From contig JBBIML010000009.1 of NCBI GenBank assembly GCA_037444405.1, positions 32,001-96,000 of the forward strand: a DNA stretch of 64,000 bases, read 5' to 3'. A program made the position numbers and the translations under genes. The DNA comes from Armatimonadota bacterium (GTDB lineage: Bacteria > Armatimonadota > Fimbriimonadia > Fimbriimonadales > GBS-DC). This document shows, piece by piece, positions 13,190 to 20,382 of the stretch (positions are counted from its first letter, which is position 1; every line of letters begins with the position of its first letter). Under the pieces are notes generated by a model. The model was not told where the DNA came from. It saw only the letters and a list, made by a program, of their open reading frames with translations, and made no database searches.

Positions 13190-14268
13190 TCGCTGAAAAT
13201 CACCTCCAGCTGCTGGGACGGCAGCAGTTCGCGCAGGCGTTCGGCAAGGACACGGGTGCCGGGCAGCTCGGTCTCGCGATGCCCCGCTTCGATCAGCACG
13301 ATGTCGTGCGCCCATGCCTCCCATGTGTGGTGGTGGCGCACCTCGCCCGTGAGCAGGGCATCGGCGTGCGCAGCGCGTGCCGCTGGCAGGTAGTCGCCAC
13401 CGGAGCCGCCGACCACCATCAGCGTGCGCACAATCGCGCCCGGCTTGCCATAGAGCCGCACATGCGGGTTGCCGAGCCGTTCGGCAGCGTAGGTGCGTAA
13501 CTCTTCCGCTCGCATCGGGCGCGGCAACCGCCCCACGCGCCCCAGCGGGTAGGGCTGCGGGGTGTGCAGAGGATAGACATCGTAGGCGACCTCCTCATAC
13601 GGATGCGCCTGTAGCATCGCCTGAATGACCGCCTGCAGCCGATGGGACGGCACCAGCACCTCCAGGCGCATCTCCTGAATATGCTCGCGTCGCCCGACCG
13701 CGCCCTGATAGGGGTTCGCGCCCGGTTGCGGCTCGTAGGTGCCCGTGCCAGGCTGATAGAAGGCGCAGCGCCGGTAGAGTCCGATTTCGCCTGCGCCCGC
13801 TGCCGCCATCCGATCCAGCACCGCATCTAAATGTTCGGGCGGTACGAAGGTGACGAGCTTGAACTGTTGCACTTCGGCGCCATCGCCGGCAGGGCGCACC
13901 TCTTCCAGACCCAGCTGCACAGCGAGCGCGTCGTTGATGCCGCCTGACGCACAGTCCCAGTTCGTATGCACGGCGATATGCGCCATCCGTGCGGCGCAGA
14001 GCTGCTGCAGCGCGCTACCGACCGGCTGATCGTAGCGCACCGCGCTCAGCGGGCGATAGATCAGTGGATGATGCGTGATGAGCAACTGGCAGTTATGATA
14101 GACGGCTTTGGTGACGGTGCGCGGGTCGGCATCCAGCGCGACCATCAGCCGCTCGACCTCCAGCTCGGGCGAACCGACCTGCAAGCCTGTCGGGTCGCCG
14201 GGCAACGCGAGCGCCGACGGCGCTATCTGCTCAATCGCGTTCAGCACATCCCGCACCCGTATCGCCAT
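13186..14268 (-). CDS. Nif3-like dinuclear metal centre protein (YqfO/YbgI family)
   Basis: D.TGLQVG, LITHHPL, HTNWD, AHPYEEVAYD, GEVRHH, GHRETE. Confidence 0.93.
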   Translation of the reverse strand: MAIRVRDVLNAIEQIAPSALALPGDPTGLQVGSPELEVERLMVALDADPRTVTKAVYHNCQLLITHHPLIYRPLSAVRYDQPVGSALQQLCAARMAHIAVHTNWDCASGGINDALAVQLGLEEVRPAGDGAEVQQFKLVTFVPPEHLDAVLDRMAAAGAGEIGLYRRCAFYQPGTGTYEPQPGANPYQGAVGRREHIQEMRLEVLVPSHRLQAVIQAMLQAHPYEEVAYDVYPLHTPQPYPLGRVGRLPRPMRAEELRTYAAERLGNPHVRLYGKPGAIVRTLMVVGGSGGDYLPAARAAHADALLTGEVRHHHTWEAWAHDIVLIEAGHRETELPGTRVLAERLRELLPSQQLEVIFSE

Positions 14269-14327
14269 CCCGCAGAGATTTTACCTGTCCGCCGCGCCAG
14301 CAGGTATACTCTGTGCGGTGATGCCCG

Positions 14328-14888
14328 ATGAGTAAAGCCGCTGCCACAAAGCCGAAACGGGGGCGCAAACTTACCGAGGAGCAGTTCCTGCGCCTGCCCG
14401 ACGATGGACGCAAGTACGAACTGGTCGACAAGGAGGCAAAGGAAGTGCCCGCAGGGCACGAACACGATGTGATTGGAGCAGGATTGATTGCACGATTGGT
14501 GCCTGTTGCGAAGGAACGCGGCTATGTGGCAGGTTCACAGGCGGGTTTCCGCATGACCAACGGCAACATTCGCAGCCCCGATGTCGCCTTCACCCTCAAG
14601 GAGCGACTGCCCGACGGCAAACCCTCTAAAGGCTTTGAAACGGGCGCGCCCGACCTCGCGATTGAGATTGTCTCACCGAATGAGGACATTGCCGATCTGT
14701 TGCGCAAGATAGGGGAGTATTTTGCGTCGGGGGCGCAGCAGGTGTGGTTGCTGTTTCCGGAGACGCGCACGGTGAAGGTGTATAGTTCGCCGTTTGATGT
14801 GCGCACGCTGGTGGGGGACGACGAGTTGACGGGTGGTGACCTGTTGCCCGATTTTCGGTGCAAAGTGCAGGAGCTGTTTGAGGTCTGA
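14328..14888 (+). CDS. Uma2 (DUF820) family endonuclease-fold protein
   Basis: KYELVD, RSPDVAF, APDLAIEIVSPNE, KIGEYFASGAQQVWL, LTGGDLLPDF. Confidence 0.9.
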   Translation: MSKAAATKPKRGRKLTEEQFLRLPDDGRKYELVDKEAKEVPAGHEHDVIGAGLIARLVPVAKERGYVAGSQAGFRMTNGNIRSPDVAFTLKERLPDGKPSKGFETGAPDLAIEIVSPNEDIADLLRKIGEYFASGAQQVWLLFPETRTVKVYSSPFDVRTLVGDDELTGGDLLPDFRCKVQELFEV

Positions 14889-14909
14889 ATCATATCCAAG
14901 TTGAAGCAA

Positions 14910-15362
14910 TCAGTTGTTAAATAGTCTTTTTATAAGGATAGGGACAGCGAAAAAGCATAATAAAAAGAAATATGAACAAATAAAGATATAGTGAAGGATA
15001 AACCACTCTCTGCTTTCAAAACCAAAATTCAAAAATTTGTAGTAAAACCATCCAGATATAAAGATGAACAAAATCAAAACAACTGTTCTTAATTTTAAAT
15101 CTATTGATTTTATTATATAAGCAATAAAAATTCCCCAGATAAGCCAGAAGAGCCAATCGAAGAGGTTGCGGCTGGAATAAATCGAAGCCCATAGAAGAAC
15201 CTCAAACTCATCTTCAGGGTGTGCATAGCCTGGTCTTCTTGGCGTCAGAAGATATGCTATAGAGCCAACTATAAACGAAGGAATGAAGACTGTTAATTTT
15301 GCTAAAGCAATACCAATCACAGTTCGCAAATAGTAGTTGTTAAAACTTATTTTCATCTGCAT
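14910..15362 (-). CDS. Small AT-rich integral membrane protein (about 4 TM), unknown function
   Basis: 150-aa ORF with several hydrophobic segments, starting 3 nt after the upstream stop; last gene of the AT-rich cassette. Confidence 0.7.
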   Translation of the reverse strand: MQMKISFNNYYLRTVIGIALAKLTVFIPSFIVGSIAYLLTPRRPGYAHPEDEFEVLLWASIYSSRNLFDWLFWLIWGIFIAYIIKSIDLKLRTVVLILFIFISGWFYYKFLNFGFESREWFILHYIFICSYFFLLCFFAVPILIKRLFNN

Positions 15363-15365
15363 CCC

Positions 15366-16061
15366 TCACTCATCTTGAAATCGTCCACAACCACAATAGC
15401 CAAATCCAAGCTGTTCGGGGCATGGCGCATCCGTAACATATTGCCAATATGAGCGGTAGCCTCTTTCTCCGCATTGAGTTATGGGAACACCCTGTGGAAC
15501 ACGCTGCACAGAGCCATCCTTACGCAAACGCAGGATTAAACCGCCATCGTACCATGTTTCAGCGTCTACGGTCTCACTGAAGGTCCCCAGCTTGTCACCG
15601 TGCAGCAAGCAATAAGCAACTCCATGATTTGGATCTCGCTCTTCGAGCAGCCTCCTAAAAGCAAGGCACTGACGATACAAAGGCTGACGAGGATAGCATA
15701 CAGGATGGAGAATATAGTGAAAACTAATTGCAAATCCTGCCATTCTCGACTCATCTAGATTTCCACCTCGTGTTTTTGAGGATGACGCCCATGGATCTAA
15801 GGGGCACACAAAAACATCTTTCGACTTTGCATAGGAAGAATACCTGTGTAATCTTGGAGCCAGTTCTTGATAATCTGAAAGATAGAGATTAATAGATGAA
15901 CCAATTTGATGGAGATTGCTTATGCAAGAAGCTTCAAGCGAGCGCTTGCGTGCTGCATTCAATACAGGTAGCAGTAATCCTAATATTAAAACGATAATTA
16001 CCACTACAATCAACAACTCCAGCAGAGTAATTCCCTTACCGCGCATTTTTTTCTCCTCCAT
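15366..16061 (-). CDS. Prepilin-type N-terminal cleavage/methylation protein (DUF1559-like pseudopilin)
   Basis: KG|ITLLELLIVVVIIVLILGLLLPVLNAARKRS...CISNLHQIG, FVCPLD. Start 16061 or 16046. Confidence 0.85.
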   Translation of the reverse strand: MEEKKMRGKGITLLELLIVVVIIVLILGLLLPVLNAARKRSLEASCISNLHQIGSSINLYLSDYQELAPRLHRYSSYAKSKDVFVCPLDPWASSSKTRGGNLDESRMAGFAISFHYILHPVCYPRQPLYRQCLAFRRLLEERDPNHGVAYCLLHGDKLGTFSETVDAETWYDGGLILRLRKDGSVQRVPQGVPITQCGERGYRSYWQYVTDAPCPEQLGFGYCGCGRFQDE

Positions 16062-16092
16062 AGTAATTTAGCTGTAAATCTCGTATTATATT

Positions 16093-16752
16093 TTAATAGC
16101 AGTTTTCGGAGCATATCTCGGTTGGACACGGCACATCTGTAAACAGATTCCAGCGATCGCGTATGGCACTGGAAGTGTTATCGGCTGGATCAATACAGGG
16201 GCGCAGGTAGGTGTGCGCGCGCTGAATGGAACCATCCATACGTGTGCGTAAAGTAAGCCCCTCACAACAGGTTTCTACTGAAGGCGGGATCGAATACCGA
16301 CATCCAGAACGACAAGTACCATGTAACAAGCAAGCCAGCAATCCATGATTTGAGTCTCTCTGAGGCATGAGTTCAATTAATTTTTCATATCTGCCTACAG
16401 GATCAGCGAAATAGAAGTAGCTGAGACTGATTGAATGCTCTCGGGCATACAGATTGCCGCCTCCAAACCAGTTGACTCCACCAAATTCCCTTGCATGATC
16501 GTAAGGGCAAAGGAAGACTTCACGATTTCTGATGTATGGATAGGTATACTGGGCAAAAGGTGGAAAATCACCATGATCTTGGCGATACATTAGAAGCGCA
16601 CTGACTATCTGCCTCATATTGCTAATGCATTGTGTTTCATGTGCTTTATGACGTGAAGCAACAATCACTGGCATCAATAATGCTGCCAATAAGGCGATGA
16701 TGAGTATAACAACCAGAATCTCTATCAGGCTGATTCCATCAATTCTTCTCAT
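16093..16752 (-). CDS. Prepilin-type N-terminal cleavage/methylation protein (paralogue of 15366..16061)
   Basis: DG|ISLIEILVVILIIALLAALLMPV...CISNMRQI, FLCPYD. GGAG before ATG 16752. Confidence 0.85.
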   Translation of the reverse strand: MRRIDGISLIEILVVILIIALLAALLMPVIVASRHKAHETQCISNMRQIVSALLMYRQDHGDFPPFAQYTYPYIRNREVFLCPYDHAREFGGVNWFGGGNLYAREHSISLSYFYFADPVGRYEKLIELMPQRDSNHGLLACLLHGTCRSGCRYSIPPSVETCCEGLTLRTRMDGSIQRAHTYLRPCIDPADNTSSAIRDRWNLFTDVPCPTEICSENCY

Positions 16753-17272
16753 AATTGTCTCCCAAATAATTTCCAATATATTTTTTATAATTTTCAAATA
16801 ATTTGTATATTATGAACATTGAAAAACAAAAAGCAAAAGCATAAAAAATATTAAATAATACATTTAAGATAAGCAGATCGTGTGCTACATCGGGTTCAGA
16901 AGCAAATCGACGTGGGATTGTAGCTGTAGCAACTATTTTTCTGGAAAGAAAAATCAAGCCCGATGCTGCCATATAGAAATAGAAAACGACTTGAGAGGAA
17001 CTGGATGACTCTTGTCGGTTGTAGCCCCAGATAGCAGCTATCCCACCAAAAATCAGACACAAAATCACCTCGTAAGGGGAGACACTTATGGACAAACTCA
17101 GGTAATTCACAAAATTTATATAAAAATCGGAGATGCTATACTTGCGTAAGAAACTATAAAAGCCTGCAAGAAATGATACTATAATAAAGGTAAAAATAGA
17201 TGCTAAGATACCACCTGCTAAACCACACAGGGCATTGCTCAACCATTTACCGCGCAGTATCGTGGTTCGCAT
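16739..17272 (-). CDS. AT-rich integral membrane protein (about 4 TM), unknown function
   Basis: GAGGTG precedes ATG 17272 (MRTTILRGKW); four hydrophobic stretches; overlaps the next start. Confidence 0.7.
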   Translation of the reverse strand: MRTTILRGKWLSNALCGLAGGILASIFTFIIVSFLAGFYSFLRKYSISDFYINFVNYLSLSISVSPYEVILCLIFGGIAAIWGYNRQESSSSSQVVFYFYMAASGLIFLSRKIVATATIPRRFASEPDVAHDLLILNVLFNIFYAFAFCFSMFIIYKLFENYKKYIGNYLGDNYEKN

Positions 17273-17284
17273 AAAGCCACCTCT

Positions 17285-17321
17285 TTGTGGTTCCCCTACC
17301 GACAAGGTAGGGGAACCACAA
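17285..17321. terminator. Perfect 16-bp intercistronic stem-loop (attenuator or mRNA-stabilising hairpin)
   Basis: ttgtggttcccctacc-gacaa-ggtaggggaaccacaa immediately downstream of the Cys-rich gene stop; no U-tract on the minus strand. Confidence 0.7.
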
Positions 17322-17324
17322 GTT

Positions 17325-17873
17325 CTAAGGGAACGAAGGCACACCTTGCCAATTACAAAGAATCTGACCCGGTGCACCTCCATTACAGGGTGGTATATCT
17401 GTGCGTCGACAGCAATCTCCCGGGCGCGGCACCCATCCATCACACCAGACATACTGAGTACCATCTGAACACGTCCATATGTACTTGTTGCGCGTGTGCT
17501 TGGTGTTTGCGTACTCAGTGCCATCTGAAGCCCTACAAAACATAGGCAAGCAACCCCACTTTGTAATGGGACCTTCTCGCACGCAGGTCGCATCGGGACA
17601 GGGAGGCTGTGGGAAGATTGGAATGGGTAAGGGAGATTGACCCGGGTTACCCAGTTGCCTGTTCCTACGTAGAATTGCCCTGATCTTCACAGGGTCAGGG
17701 CGGCTTAGAGTGTCACGACATTCGCATTCAGATTGAGACATGTTTGTCGAACCAGTCAACAATTTACCCCCCCCGCTCAGTTCGGCGAGGGCGGCGAGGG
17801 TGTTGGGCAGCGCCACGAGATTGGCAATCAACAACGCACCTGCGTTCATCCACAGCATCTTTCGTCGGCTCAT
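17325..17873 (-). CDS. Secreted Cys-rich protein (182 aa, 12 Cys) with a leader ending ELSGGG
   Basis: AGGAGG precedes ATG 17873. MSRRKMLWMNAGALLIANLVALPNTLAALAELSGGG is followed by a Cys/Pro-rich body with an internal SDGT.Y repeat. Confidence 0.75.
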   Translation of the reverse strand: MSRRKMLWMNAGALLIANLVALPNTLAALAELSGGGKLLTGSTNMSQSECECRDTLSRPDPVKIRAILRRNRQLGNPGQSPLPIPIFPQPPCPDATCVREGPITKWGCLPMFCRASDGTEYANTKHTRNKYIWTCSDGTQYVWCDGWVPRPGDCCRRTDIPPCNGGAPGQILCNWQGVPSFP

Positions 17874-18450
17874 CGCTCTGTCCCTCCTGACTCGTCTGTG
17901 TGAGAGATGACACCTGGGCATCATCTCCACTATTATTAACACCGCAAACCCTCCAATCGTCGCATCCAGAACAACAGTTCCGACGAACTGTCTCCACACC
18001 ACGCTGAAAGCGCATCTTCGCCGCGCTCGCCGAAATGCCTAATTGCAAGGCAATCTCGTCCCAGCTATAACCCGCCTCCAGCAGGTCGTAAATCGCCTGC
18101 GCGGCGGCAGGCAGCTGCTGGTAGAGCCACTGCTCCTCCAGATGCGCTATCGCCTCGCCTTCAGGGTCTGAAAGGAACGCCGCCGGCTGTGCCCAGCGCG
18201 CCAGCGCCTCCTGCTCGCGTCGACGCGACCGCCATAAGTTCAGCACCTGCCGGCGCACGGTTAGATGGAGGATGTTGTCAGGCAGCCCATCGAGGAACGC
18301 CTCCAGCTCAGCTTCCGAAGCGTCAGGATGATGGCGCCGATAGGCTTTCAGCAGGCGAACCAGGCTCTCCTGCAGAATGTCTTCCGCATCGGACTGGCTC
18401 AGCTCGTAACGGCGAGTGATCCATCGTATCCACGGTTCCCACACTTTCAT
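17764..18450 (-). CDS. ECF-type RNA polymerase sigma factor
   Basis: Region 2 DAEDILQESLVRL; region 4 LPAAAQAIYDLLEAGYSWDEIALQLGISASAAKMRFQRG; GGGGAG upstream. The C-terminal tail overlaps the next gene. Confidence 0.85.
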   Translation of the reverse strand: MKVWEPWIRWITRRYELSQSDAEDILQESLVRLLKAYRRHHPDASEAELEAFLDGLPDNILHLTVRRQVLNLWRSRRREQEALARWAQPAAFLSDPEGEAIAHLEEQWLYQQLPAAAQAIYDLLEAGYSWDEIALQLGISASAAKMRFQRGVETVRRNCCSGCDDWRVCGVNNSGDDAQVSSLTQTSQEGQSDEPTKDAVDERRCVVDCQSRGAAQHPRRPRRTERGG

Positions 18451-18573
18451 CGTGACTCCCCCTTCGCTCTATTGATTCGTGCGATTGGCAGGCGATTCCT
18501 GCTTTATGTGCGCTTTTCGGGGAGGAAATGAGGTATTATAAGGCAGGTGAGTATCACCGCTGGAGGGATCACG

Positions 18574-20382
18574 ATGGCAACGGTTGGAGCGTTAGGATTG
18601 CTGGATCGGTTGCGCCCGTATCGGCGGCGCGTGCGCTGGGTGCTGATGTGGCGCTGGGGGGCAATCGGTGGCTTTGTCGGCACACTCATCGCAATTGCGC
18701 TCGACGCGCTCGACTGGCTCGCTGTATTGAGCGTTCAACCCGTTGGGCTGGTGGCGAGTATCCTCGCAGGGATTCTGCTGGGCTGCCTCTATGCGCTGCT
18801 GATCCCGCTGCCGGCGCCCGCGCTGGCACAACTGATTGACCGCCGCGGTGGGCTGAAAGACCGCCTGCAGACCGCCCTGGAGCACACCGACGGCGAGCAT
18901 CTGTTTGACCAGCCGCTGATGGAGGATGCCCTTAATGCCCTGCTGTATCGTCGCCCTGCGGAGCTGTTCCGTTTCCGATTGGGCATCTGGCACGGGCTGT
19001 TCGCGCTGGCGCTGGTCGCCCTGCTCGGTTTCCACTTCCTGCCCCAGATACTGATGGCAATCAGCTCCGAGCGGCGTGAGCAGCAGAAGCAGGTACAGCA
19101 GGCGGCGAAACAGATTGAGCAGGTCGCCAAACCCATCATGGAGCGCGCCAGAAAGCCCGATGCGACCGAGCTGGAGAAGCGCATCGCCCGCAATATTGAA
19201 CTCTACTCCCGTCGCGCCCGACAGGGACGCATGAGCAAGCAGGAGGCGCTCGTGCGCTACAACAAGCTGATGGAAGAAGCTCGCAAATTGGAGGCGCAGA
19301 GCCAGAAGCAGCTCCAGCAGGCTGCACAGGAAGCCGCCACCGCAGGCGAGAAGCTCCGCCAGATCATAGAGAAACAGAACCAGCAACTGCAGCCCCTGCT
19401 GCAGCAGTTGCAGACGGAACTGCAGGCGCTCCAGCAACAGCTGCAGACGGGCAAAGATTCGCAGGGCAACCCGCTCAGCGCGGCGCAGCGCGCCAGCCTA
19501 CAGGAGCAGATTCGCCAGCTGCAGGCGACCCTGCAAGCCCTGCGCAACCCCTCCACTGCCAGCCTGCAGAACCAGATGAGCGAGCTGCAACGCCAGATTA
19601 ACGAGCTCCAGCGCCAGCTGCAGTCTGGACGCGACTCAAAAGGCATCCCGCTCAGCAAAGAGGCGATGGAAGCCCTCAAAAAGCAACTGGAACGGCTCCA
19701 GCGGCAGCTGCGGGCGCTCCAGCTTTCCGAGCAGGCGCGCGAGTTCCTGCGCAAACTGATGAACGACCCCAACTTCATCGAGGCGATGCACCGCCTGCAG
19801 GAGCTGGCGAAAAAGTGCCAGCAGCTGAACCAGAACCAGAGCCAGCAACAGCGCCAGCTCACGCAGGCAGAGATCGAGCGCATGGCACGCGAGCTCGAGA
19901 AACGGCTCGAAGAGCTGGCGAAACGCTACAGCAGCGACGAACAGATTCGCGAGCTGGCGAAGCAGATACTGGAGCAGGTCAAACGCATGAAGGAGCTGAG
20001 CCAGTGTCAGGGCGCCTGCTCGGGGCTGGGGCTGGCAGGCATGTGCTTCGGGCTGGGGGCAATCCCGCGCCCAGGCGGCGCGTGGGACAAGCACGACTAC
20101 TTCGGTCAGCCCGAAATGTTCAATCAGGGCGCGAAGAACCCCGAGCTCAAAATCCCGATGAAGAACACGCCCGTGTCGGGTCAGCCGCCGATGTTGCCCG
20201 GTCCAGCGGACTATGAGGAGTACGAGGCGCCGCCGACGCCTGGCGACAGCAGCGTGCCGCTCACGCAGGTTCTGCCCAGCTACCAGAAGAAGGCGGAGCA
20301 GGCGCTGGATAAGCAGAACATCCCCCCTGCCGAGCGCAAACGGGTCAAACGCTACTTCGAATCGCTCAGCAGCGGGCAATGA
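18574..20382 (+). CDS. Membrane-anchored Gln-rich coiled-coil protein (DUF4175-like architecture)
   Basis: N-terminal TM helices, IDRRGGLKDRLQTALE, long Q/E/L coiled coil with a duplicated QLQ.G.DS.G.PLS unit, C-terminal IPPAERKRVKRYFESL. Confidence 0.7.
   Translation: MATVGALGLLDRLRPYRRRVRWVLMWRWGAIGGFVGTLIAIALDALDWLAVLSVQPVGLVASILAGILLGCLYALLIPLPAPALAQLIDRRGGLKDRLQTALEHTDGEHLFDQPLMEDALNALLYRRPAELFRFRLGIWHGLFALALVALLGFHFLPQILMAISSERREQQKQVQQAAKQIEQVAKPIMERARKPDATELEKRIARNIELYSRRARQGRMSKQEALVRYNKLMEEARKLEAQSQKQLQQAAQEAATAGEKLRQIIEKQNQQLQPLLQQLQTELQALQQQLQTGKDSQGNPLSAAQRASLQEQIRQLQATLQALRNPSTASLQNQMSELQRQINELQRQLQSGRDSKGIPLSKEAMEALKKQLERLQRQLRALQLSEQAREFLRKLMNDPNFIEAMHRLQELAKKCQQLNQNQSQQQRQLTQAEIERMARELEKRLEELAKRYSSDEQIRELAKQILEQVKRMKELSQCQGACSGLGLAGMCFGLGAIPRPGGAWDKHDYFGQPEMFNQGAKNPELKIPMKNTPVSGQPPMLPGPADYEEYEAPPTPGDSSVPLTQVLPSYQKKAEQALDKQNIPPAERKRVKRYFESLSSGQ

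Follow-up and report, generated by a model that had tools for sequence, protein, structure and literature searches.

A 64,000-nt stretch of the genome of an uncultured Armatimonadota bacterium (Fimbriimonadales) from a hot environment (contig JBBIML010000009.1, positions 32,001 to 96,000; hereafter the window) carries a locus in which a gene for an extracytoplasmic function (ECF) type sigma factor overlaps the start of a gene for a predicted secreted, cysteine-rich protein, followed by genes for small membrane proteins and prepilin-like proteins. We consider it probable, though by no means certain, that this is a contingency locus, i.e., a module of Cys-rich protein, membrane protein and pseudopilin that is secreted or located at the surface, is phase-variable through strand slippage, and has a cassette that is exchanged by recombination. 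The putative switch is a poly-G tract at the junction between a conserved leader and the body of the Cys-rich protein. The source genome (G000) is a 2.68-Mb assembly of 40 contigs with a guanine-plus-cytosine (GC) content of 62.5%. Coordinates are positions of the window, and the locus lies on the minus strand unless marked otherwise; its parts are as follows.

14286..18560, minus strand: accessory island (sigma factor gene, leader, cassette and Uma2 gene), delimited by blastn against the congener G001 and by adjacency of the flanking genes
17764..18450, minus strand: ECF-type sigma-70 family factor, open reading frame (ORF) of 228 aa, with Pfam Sigma70_r2 and Sigma70_r4_2
17325..17873, minus strand: whole Cys-rich predicted secreted protein, an ORF of 182 aa with 12 Cys
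17775..17873, minus strand: conserved leader, residues 1-33 (MSRRK, hydrophobic core, P-N-T, A-L-A|E), defined by its identity across loci
17767..17774, minus strand: G8 homopolymer (C8 on the plus strand), coding for Gly34-36; left-hand edge of the cassette and putative site of switching by strand slippage
17325..17766, minus strand: body of the secreted protein, with CxC, a helix at residues 61-73, a Pro-rich linker and a disulfide-rich all-beta domain predicted at about residues 88-182 (AlphaFold2 model and alignment)
17285..17321, minus strand: perfect 16-bp hairpin 3' of the stop codon of the Cys-rich gene (sequence and folding)
16739..17272, minus strand: small multi-pass membrane protein, 177 aa, cassette-specific (hydropathy scan)
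16093..16752, minus strand: prepilin-like protein A, 219 aa from the ATG at 16752 (N_methyl and GspG matches below cut-off, AlphaFold2 model)
15366..16061, minus strand: prepilin-like protein B, 231 aa, a paralogue of A (motif and similarity to A)
14910..15362, minus strand: second small membrane protein, 150 aa, with 4 hydrophobic segments (hydropathy scan)
14892..17766, minus strand: replaceable cassette, 2875 bp, 42% GC (blastn against a same-genus locus and contigs of sequencing run X4)
14328..14888, plus strand: Uma2-family gene, right border (Pfam Uma2, E = 1.4e-29)
18478..18501, minus strand: promoter-like motif 5' of the sigma factor gene, GCAGGAATC-N15-CGAA, of putative function

The junction between leader and body is a run of eight G residues (17767-17774), which supplies the codons for Gly34-36. 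The sigma factor ORF crosses the entire leader in another frame and its TAA stop abuts the 3' end of this run. Across 12 loci of relatives, the junction was found to consist of 8, 11, 8, 11, 11, 9, 9, 15, 12 and 18 G residues and of two interrupted tracts (G5AAG3 and G4AG6). A locus of the same genus (L016) carries an out-of-frame tract of 11 G between flanks that are approximately 95% identical to those described here. Among 17 distinct junctions in the stored loci, with the longest open frame after the tract taken as the body, 7 have the body in the frame of the leader, 6 have it in frame +1 and 4 have it in the frame of the sigma factor. The out-of-frame junctions retain an open body of 127-177 codons in 8 of 10 cases; of the other two, one is cut at a contig end and one is shortened to 59 codons. 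Three features of contingency loci are present, i.e., a homopolymer of at least 8 nt in the 5' coding region, a length that is polymorphic between conserved flanks, and a change of frame that leaves the remainder of the gene intact. In a public protein library, many matches are leader-only ORFs (44-95 aa) or body-only ORFs, and two are fusions of sigma factor and body (P0032 and P0039, of 350 and 385 aa); a fusion ORF of 393 aa is also present in one of the loci (L011).

A difference in tract length was also found within the strain. In four sequencing runs of one study (X1-X4), of which the assembled contigs were used and uncovered parts and depth differences were not, the contigs of X1, which is possibly the source sample, are identical to the sequence described here. 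A contig from X2 is identical over 17516-17950 save for one extra C in the run, which gives G9 and places the body out of frame. Contigs from X3 stop near the tract and were not counted as evidence. Long G/C runs are rare in the genome as a whole; only 11 runs of at least 8 nt were observed in the 2.68 Mb, compared with approximately 300 expected from composition alone. Five of these 11 runs are located at sigma-family genes and 4 of those 5 adjoin low-GC islands. When the three other testable tracts were compared with the congener G002, their lengths had changed from 9 to 10, from 8 to 6 (in two copies) and from 9 to 10, respectively, between flanks that are 94-96% identical.

The cassette that begins at the tract is replaced wholesale between close relatives, and cassette types do not follow the species tree. 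Blastn comparison with L016 showed 94.6% identity from 20419 to 17767 and 95.1% identity from 14891 to 12604, with no alignment between; on the right-hand side, homology resumes 3 nt past the Uma2 stop codon. The replaced segment is 2875 bp long with 42% GC here versus 1574 bp with 56% GC in L016, where the same kinds of genes are encoded (body, small membrane protein and one pilin) and the pilin is 33-36% identical. Contigs of a related population in run X4 (a relative at 90-95%) cease aligning at 14891 and 17776. The sigma factor is 87% identical between congeners while the body is replaced. When three bodies from the same genus were used as blastp queries, the top three matches of each were all from outside the genus. 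Prepilin-like protein A has 10 homologues at 57-70% identity, after which identity falls to 42%, and those of the 10 that were located sit in loci with a sigma factor that is only 26-31% identical.

Base composition changes at the same point as the homology, which was found independently by blastn. The GC fraction is 0.60-0.69 in the flanks versus 0.31-0.53 in the cassette. At third codon positions, the flanks have a fraction of 0.68-0.80 and the leader one of 0.79, after which it drops to 0.47 in the body and to 0.34-0.41 in the genes downstream. An initial annotation, made from the letters of the window, had described a single minus-strand unit of sigma factor, 12-Cys protein, hairpin, and membrane and prepilin-like genes, all of which are present, and had noted a drop in GC inside the Cys-rich gene right after the leader, with which the fall from 0.79 to 0.47 at the tract agrees. 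Its proposal of a constant leader joined to a swappable cassette is borne out by the conserved flanks with no alignment between them; a breakpoint between leader and body, when sought in related loci, was found, and the downstream genes are not uniformly conserved. The G8 run at the break and the sigma factor ORF that overlaps the leader in another frame had been overlooked. Of the mechanistic features, the hypervariable G tract has the best support.

In two of three congeners (G001 and G003), the genes that flank the locus, encoding a 611-aa coiled-coil protein and a yqfO-like protein, are adjacent with a spacer of approximately 84-110 nt, and blastn homology to G001 stops at 18561 and restarts at 14285. 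The whole unit from approximately 14286 to 18560, including the Uma2 gene, is therefore an accessory island. The Uma2 gene, encoding a putative restriction-endonuclease-like protein, is 93% identical in the same-genus locus and was not found beside cassettes in other genomes; Uma2 sequences occur at 11 places in this genome by tblastn, including the border gene. Another locus (L013) consists of three tandem units, the middle one of which has no sigma factor gene and retains the module of sigma factor tail, leader and poly-G tract as a repeat. Prepilin-like genes are a fixed component of every cassette, and a small multi-pass membrane protein is encoded next to or near the body in the inspected cassettes and changes along with it.

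The gene encoding the Cys-rich protein has an AGGAGG sequence 9 nt 5' of its ATG. Its leader is 50-94% identical in 11 other loci, and no further copies were found when they were sought in this genome. Column entropy over 17 leaders was highest at third codon positions, followed by first and then second positions; therefore, selection acts on the leader frame and not, at the protein level, on the sigma factor frame over the leader. Although the sigma factor frame is free of stops through the leader in 17 of 17 loci, as compared with 2-8 stops in the third frame, synonymous shuffles gave a chance of 0.52-0.81 per locus of finding this frame open and, since the loci are related, the open frame is suggestive only. 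The leader contains a hydrophobic stretch of approximately 19 residues and, in the AlphaFold2 model, a helix at residues 6-20. With RRK, a hydrophobic core, P-N-T and A-L-A|E, it resembles a Sec-type signal peptide, for which cleavage at ALA|E is predicted. It does not have the character of a double-glycine bacteriocin leader, being hydrophobic, and no ABC-exporter or C39-peptidase family was found among the cassette ORFs in Pfam or NCBIfam.

The bodies of the protein are homologous. An alignment of 28 bodies covers them from one end to the other and shows 6 Cys positions that are invariant and 4 that are nearly so, which speaks against the unrelated C-termini considered initially. An AlphaFold2 model built from 28 sequences contains an all-beta Cys-rich domain at about residues 88-182, with a predicted local distance difference test (pLDDT) score of approximately 96 over residues 90-170. 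Structural modeling of this protein, as had been suggested, has thus given a confident fold and no solved relative, as nothing above noise was obtained with Foldseek on the PDB (best E 0.2), with VIA-align on 48,161 chains (best Z 3.3) or with a search of BFVD (best E 0.02 at a template modeling score of 0.17). A protein atlas contained no usable match for the Cys domain. A hidden Markov model match to a eukaryotic protein of 2742 aa (P0020), which by our own reading consists of Sushi/CCP repeats, appears to reflect a shared Cys/Gly/Trp pattern; it was unsupported by the fold search and was rejected. A profile of six full-length proteins retrieved only 45 cluster representatives among 1.84 billion in the public protein library. 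The protein family is confined to the Fimbriimonadales, and 16 of 29 genomes of the family have retained the module. Some bodies (in L006 of genome G023 and in protein P0006) have a second glycine run of 8-10 Gly in the Pro-rich linker, which may represent a second slippery tract inside the gene.

The hairpin begins 4 nt after the stop codon of the Cys-rich gene and consists of a 16-bp stem and a 5-nt loop with a folding energy of -32.9 kcal/mol. A ribosome-binding site and then the next gene follow it, and a run of T residues is lacking. In 12 of 14 loci, a strong stem (-20.6 to -32.9 kcal/mol), each time of another sequence, is predicted to start within 14 nt of the stop codon, so that the hairpin reported initially is both confirmed and recurrent. 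It was not called as a terminator in a promoter/terminator scan that performed at the level of shuffled sequence, and a search of 14000-19000 against Rfam gave no match.

Neither membrane protein matched a family in Pfam, NCBIfam or PADLOC, and PADLOC identified no defence family. Both had been described as having four transmembrane segments; by a Kyte-Doolittle scan, this holds for the 150-aa protein (14910-15362), which has 4 hydrophobic segments, and the 177-aa protein (16739-17272) has 3 clear segments and one weaker segment. Relatives of the 177-aa protein follow the Cys-rich gene in L013 and L025. Searches of the protein atlas with the membrane protein gave sub-threshold leads only, including a lead of 0.80 to a colicin-immunity cluster, which is within chance range.

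The prepilin-like proteins A and B are approximately 33% identical and each has a G|IxLxE motif (DG|ISLIE and KG|ITLLE). Matches to N_methyl (19.7 and 18.2 bits, cut-off 21.2) and to the N-terminus of GspG (45 bits, cut-off 88.85) were all below cut-off. The AlphaFold2 model of protein A (pLDDT 88.9) has a 52-residue N-terminal helix (residues 9-60) followed by a beta domain, and the top Foldseek matches were type IV pilins, which are weak (best E 0.31) and cover mainly the helix. Elsewhere, the genome encodes one Peptidase_A24 prepilin peptidase and at least 9 T2SSE-type ATPases above cut-off, and 37 tblastn segments match the N-terminal part of protein A; together with the prepilin-like genes in every cassette, the peptidase and ATPases are in line with the possible link to a type II/IV pilus-like apparatus that had been suggested before. 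A complex prediction for the domain of protein A and the Cys-rich domain gave a score of 0.01, which without controls says nothing either way. Proteins A and B are themselves rich in Cys (11 and 9 residues) and share the motifs DPNHG..C.LHG and LR.R.DGS.Q, which resemble, at a longer spacing, what we take to be the H-X9-DG prepilin-associated family; an NCBIfam search of the pilin-like proteins for a family of this type gave no match at E up to 0.1.

The sigma factor reached 28.3 bits against Sigma70_r2, for which the cut-off is 24, and 26.1 bits against Sigma70_r4_2, for which it is 25.7; region 3 was not matched. It scored 39.2 bits against TIGR02937, just below the cut-off of 42.9. The sigma domains end near residue 160, and the part beyond them runs across the leader in a different frame. 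Visual inspection of this tail in several loci showed a short motif after region 4 (FFGxDxxxxGxxVxNxSG); the remainder of the tail is not conserved as protein. No anti-sigma family match was found in Pfam or NCBIfam. The promoter-like motif upstream of the gene was also found 5' of the sigma factor gene in 3 of 12 other loci examined. In the general form CAGGAAT(C/T)-N13-16-CG(A/T)A, it has 46 strict matches in the genome, roughly 5 being expected, mostly 20-40 nt before a ribosome-binding site and ATG; from its sequence and position, it is probably one of the main promoter types in this bacterium. In view of these 46 occurrences, the idea of an autoregulated promoter private to the ECF gene was dropped.

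In the phase-variable model, replication slippage in the G run would cause heritable on/off switching of the secreted protein. In-frame changes of the tract would do no more than alter the number of glycines directly behind the site of predicted signal-peptidase cleavage, and out-of-frame lengths would yield a leader peptide of 36-42 aa or a body fused in the sigma factor frame. The hairpin after the Cys-rich gene could raise its transcript level over that of the downstream genes. The three cassette products, i.e., the Cys-rich protein, the membrane protein and the pseudopilin, may cooperate at the cell envelope, with the pseudopilin being processed by the prepilin peptidase encoded elsewhere. 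Cassettes would be exchanged by recombination, with the module of sigma factor tail, leader and poly-G tract serving as the left homology arm, and the resulting variable surface or exported structure could be held polymorphic by frequency-dependent selection through phage, predators or neighbours.

Several points weigh against this model. The sole same-strain length difference comes from one X2 contig with a depth of approximately 6, and since all genomes are metagenome assemblies, represented by contigs and not raw reads, a consensus tract length may be off by one. The related genomes are not independent of each other, and the choice of the longest open frame as the body, on which the ON and OFF calls are based, is an assumption. 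Two additional leader copies without any body were identified in a later pass and the body in L025 is truncated, so that some copies are simply decaying. The sigma factor promoter motif is common genome-wide and nothing links the sigma factor regulon to the cassette. Finally, what is said here about the functions of the cassette proteins, cleavage of the signal peptide, a location at the surface and the part played by the sigma factor is predicted from sequence.

Among other explanations, a polymorphic toxin or bacteriocin with its immunity protein is possible although it appears unlikely. The Cys-rich protein would be a secreted disulfide-rich toxin and the membrane protein the immunity factor, with the pseudopilin aiding export, cassettes swapped in the manner of CDI/Rhs or bacteriocin loci, and the poly-G tract allowing bet-hedging. 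A constant N-terminus with a variable remainder, the adjacent and co-varying small membrane protein, the L013 unit that has the leader module without a sigma factor gene and thereby resembles an orphan cassette, and a hairpin after the structural gene as in precursor-peptide operons are all consistent with such a system, to which the initial annotation had likened the layout. However, the bodies form one homologous family with conserved Cys residues instead of unrelated toxin domains, and no toxin, immunity or bacteriocin family was found in Pfam, NCBIfam or PADLOC, nor any structural match above noise. Moreover, the cassette encodes no peptidase-ABC exporter, the hydrophobic leader is Sec-like and not of the double-glycine type, and the colicin-immunity lead from the atlas does not exceed chance.

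More doubtful is an extension of the phase-variable model in which tract length modulo 3 would set three states, i.e., the secreted protein, a fusion to the sigma domains that alters or disables the regulator, or neither. The sigma factor regulon and the surface module would then co-vary, and the module would represent a lineage-wide docking site for plug-in cassettes, of which this genome would contain at least 4 more sigma-headed, poly-G-linked, low-GC units.

It is rather improbable that the G run acts through recoding, such that slippage of RNA polymerase or the ribosome gives some in-frame product from every allele, perhaps including a fusion of sigma factor and body. The three frames are about evenly filled (7, 6 and 4 of 17) with intact bodies, the sigma factor frame is open through all 17 leaders (for which the chance per locus is given above), and fusion ORFs exist in L011, P0032 and P0039. 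On the other hand, the sigma factor frame over the leader shows no selection at the amino acid level. Moreover, the tract length in the DNA itself varies between species and samples, which would by itself suffice for switching.

We regard it as highly improbable that the Cys-rich protein is a membrane-anchored anti-sigma or sensor partner of the sigma factor, with the poly-G tract toggling the latter. While its gene overlaps and directly follows that of an ECF-type sigma factor, which is the usual position of an anti-sigma gene, and the N-terminal hydrophobic helix is unusually conserved, only 5 residues precede this helix, which leaves no room for a cytoplasmic anti-sigma domain, and no anti-sigma family was matched in Pfam or NCBIfam. 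In addition, the L013 unit without a sigma factor retains the gene, and the body is replaced between congeners whose sigma factors are still 87% identical. Least probable of all is the absence of a switch, in which the tract differences would be homopolymer assembly errors or decaying pseudogenes and the low-GC DNA an incidental foreign insertion; metagenome-assembled genomes are the only sources and degraded copies occur (L008, L025, L051 and L055), but the lengths range from 8 to 18 G, beyond plus or minus one, 16 of 29 genomes have kept the module, bodies of 127-177 codons stay open in 8 of 10 copies that are out of frame, and long G/C runs are strongly avoided elsewhere in the genome yet clustered at sigma-headed cassettes.

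Slipped-strand phase variation and block replacement of surface alleles are both strategies of host-adapted pathogens. Opa genes have repeats in the region encoding the signal peptide. In the polymorphic toxin loci of the contact-dependent growth inhibition (CDI) and Rhs types, a conserved N-terminus is joined to a variable remainder that is accompanied by a co-varying small downstream gene and by orphan cassettes. The locus described here shares with these the constant/variable split, the co-varying small gene and the tandem extra cassettes that retain part of the constant piece; it differs in that the variable parts are homologous, with no toxin domain found in Pfam, NCBIfam or PADLOC, the leader is predicted to be of the Sec type and pseudopilins are present in each cassette. 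In the pilA groups of Pseudomonas aeruginosa, each pilin allele has its own accessory gene, and pherotype loci such as agr and comC combine a conserved leader with a variable mature part. In common with pilA islands and pherotype loci, the present locus has discrete allele types of great age that are exchanged en bloc while the flanks stay conserved, and that are shared across lineages and differ within them. It departs from those systems in that a sigma factor gene heads a unit of Cys-rich secreted protein, membrane protein and pseudopilin genes, and in its putative homopolymer switch.

Contingency loci based on poly-G tracts are known, for example, for hmbR and hpuAB (PMC3786947), for pgtA (PMC2193922) and in the phasome of Campylobacter (PMC6321876). 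The loci of Neisseria, Haemophilus, Campylobacter and Helicobacter resemble the present locus in that a G/C homopolymer lies early in the coding sequence for a secreted or surface protein, that its length sets the frame and differs between strains, and that long tracts are rare elsewhere in the genome. The present locus differs in its host, which is a free-living, uncultured member of the Armatimonadota and not a host-adapted pathogen, and in the position of the tract, which lies at the junction of leader and mature protein, ends an overlapping sigma factor ORF and forms the edge of a replaceable multi-gene cassette. Fimbriimonas ginsengisoli, which belongs to the same bacterial class, has 79 PulG-like genes and 30 rpoE-type sigma factor genes, i.e., the same two expanded gene families; sigma-headed cassettes, poly-G tracts or a Cys-rich family are not described in the portion of that account available (PMC4072686). 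Literature searches for work linking Armatimonadetes with phase variation or homopolymeric tracts, or linking ECF sigma factor genes with poly-G tracts or phase variation, gave no such paper in the library searched.

The locus would combine the two strategies at a single junction, in a phylum that is free-living and uncultured and for which hardly any genetics exists. It is tied to a new family of predicted secreted proteins, which has a confident predicted fold and no solved relative, and to pseudopilins, the families of which are very large in these bacteria. If phase variation is indeed its mode of action, the locus could provide a handle on pseudopilin function, with natural ON and OFF alleles for testing, and an example of a homopolymer that terminates one gene, gates another and bounds a mobile cassette.

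The genome contains four further sigma-family genes with a G8-G9 run at the 3' end or just before the start (L026, L027 and L028 are among these loci); the runs are located as follows.

C6:176078 (region C6:175604-179500): G run near the 3' end of a sigma factor gene
C7:91401 (region C7:89000-91900): G run just 5' of a sigma-like gene
C13:58126 (region C13:58000-60500): G run just 5' of a sigma-like gene
C10:118 (region C10:1-300): G run at a paralogue on a contig edge

The three other low-GC islands encode orphan secreted Cys-rich proteins and large proteins without Pfam families. At L027, on C7, query positions 198-322 correspond to a repeat of approximately 125 nt that is present in more than 100 copies in the congener G002.

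The remaining six long G/C runs (L083-L088) are located at C6:39103, C7:154967, C10:21750, C8:19647, C21:45926 and C11:47517. Their settings comprise the interior of a Polysacc_synt_2 (CapD-like) gene, a position 13 nt 5' of a KdsA-like gene, a position approximately 250 nt 5' of flgK, the interior of a 545-aa ORF without a Pfam family, the interior of glnE, and a spacer. The 545-aa ORF appears, from our own reading of it, to encode a membrane protein. Several of the genes at these six runs are classical targets of phase variation.

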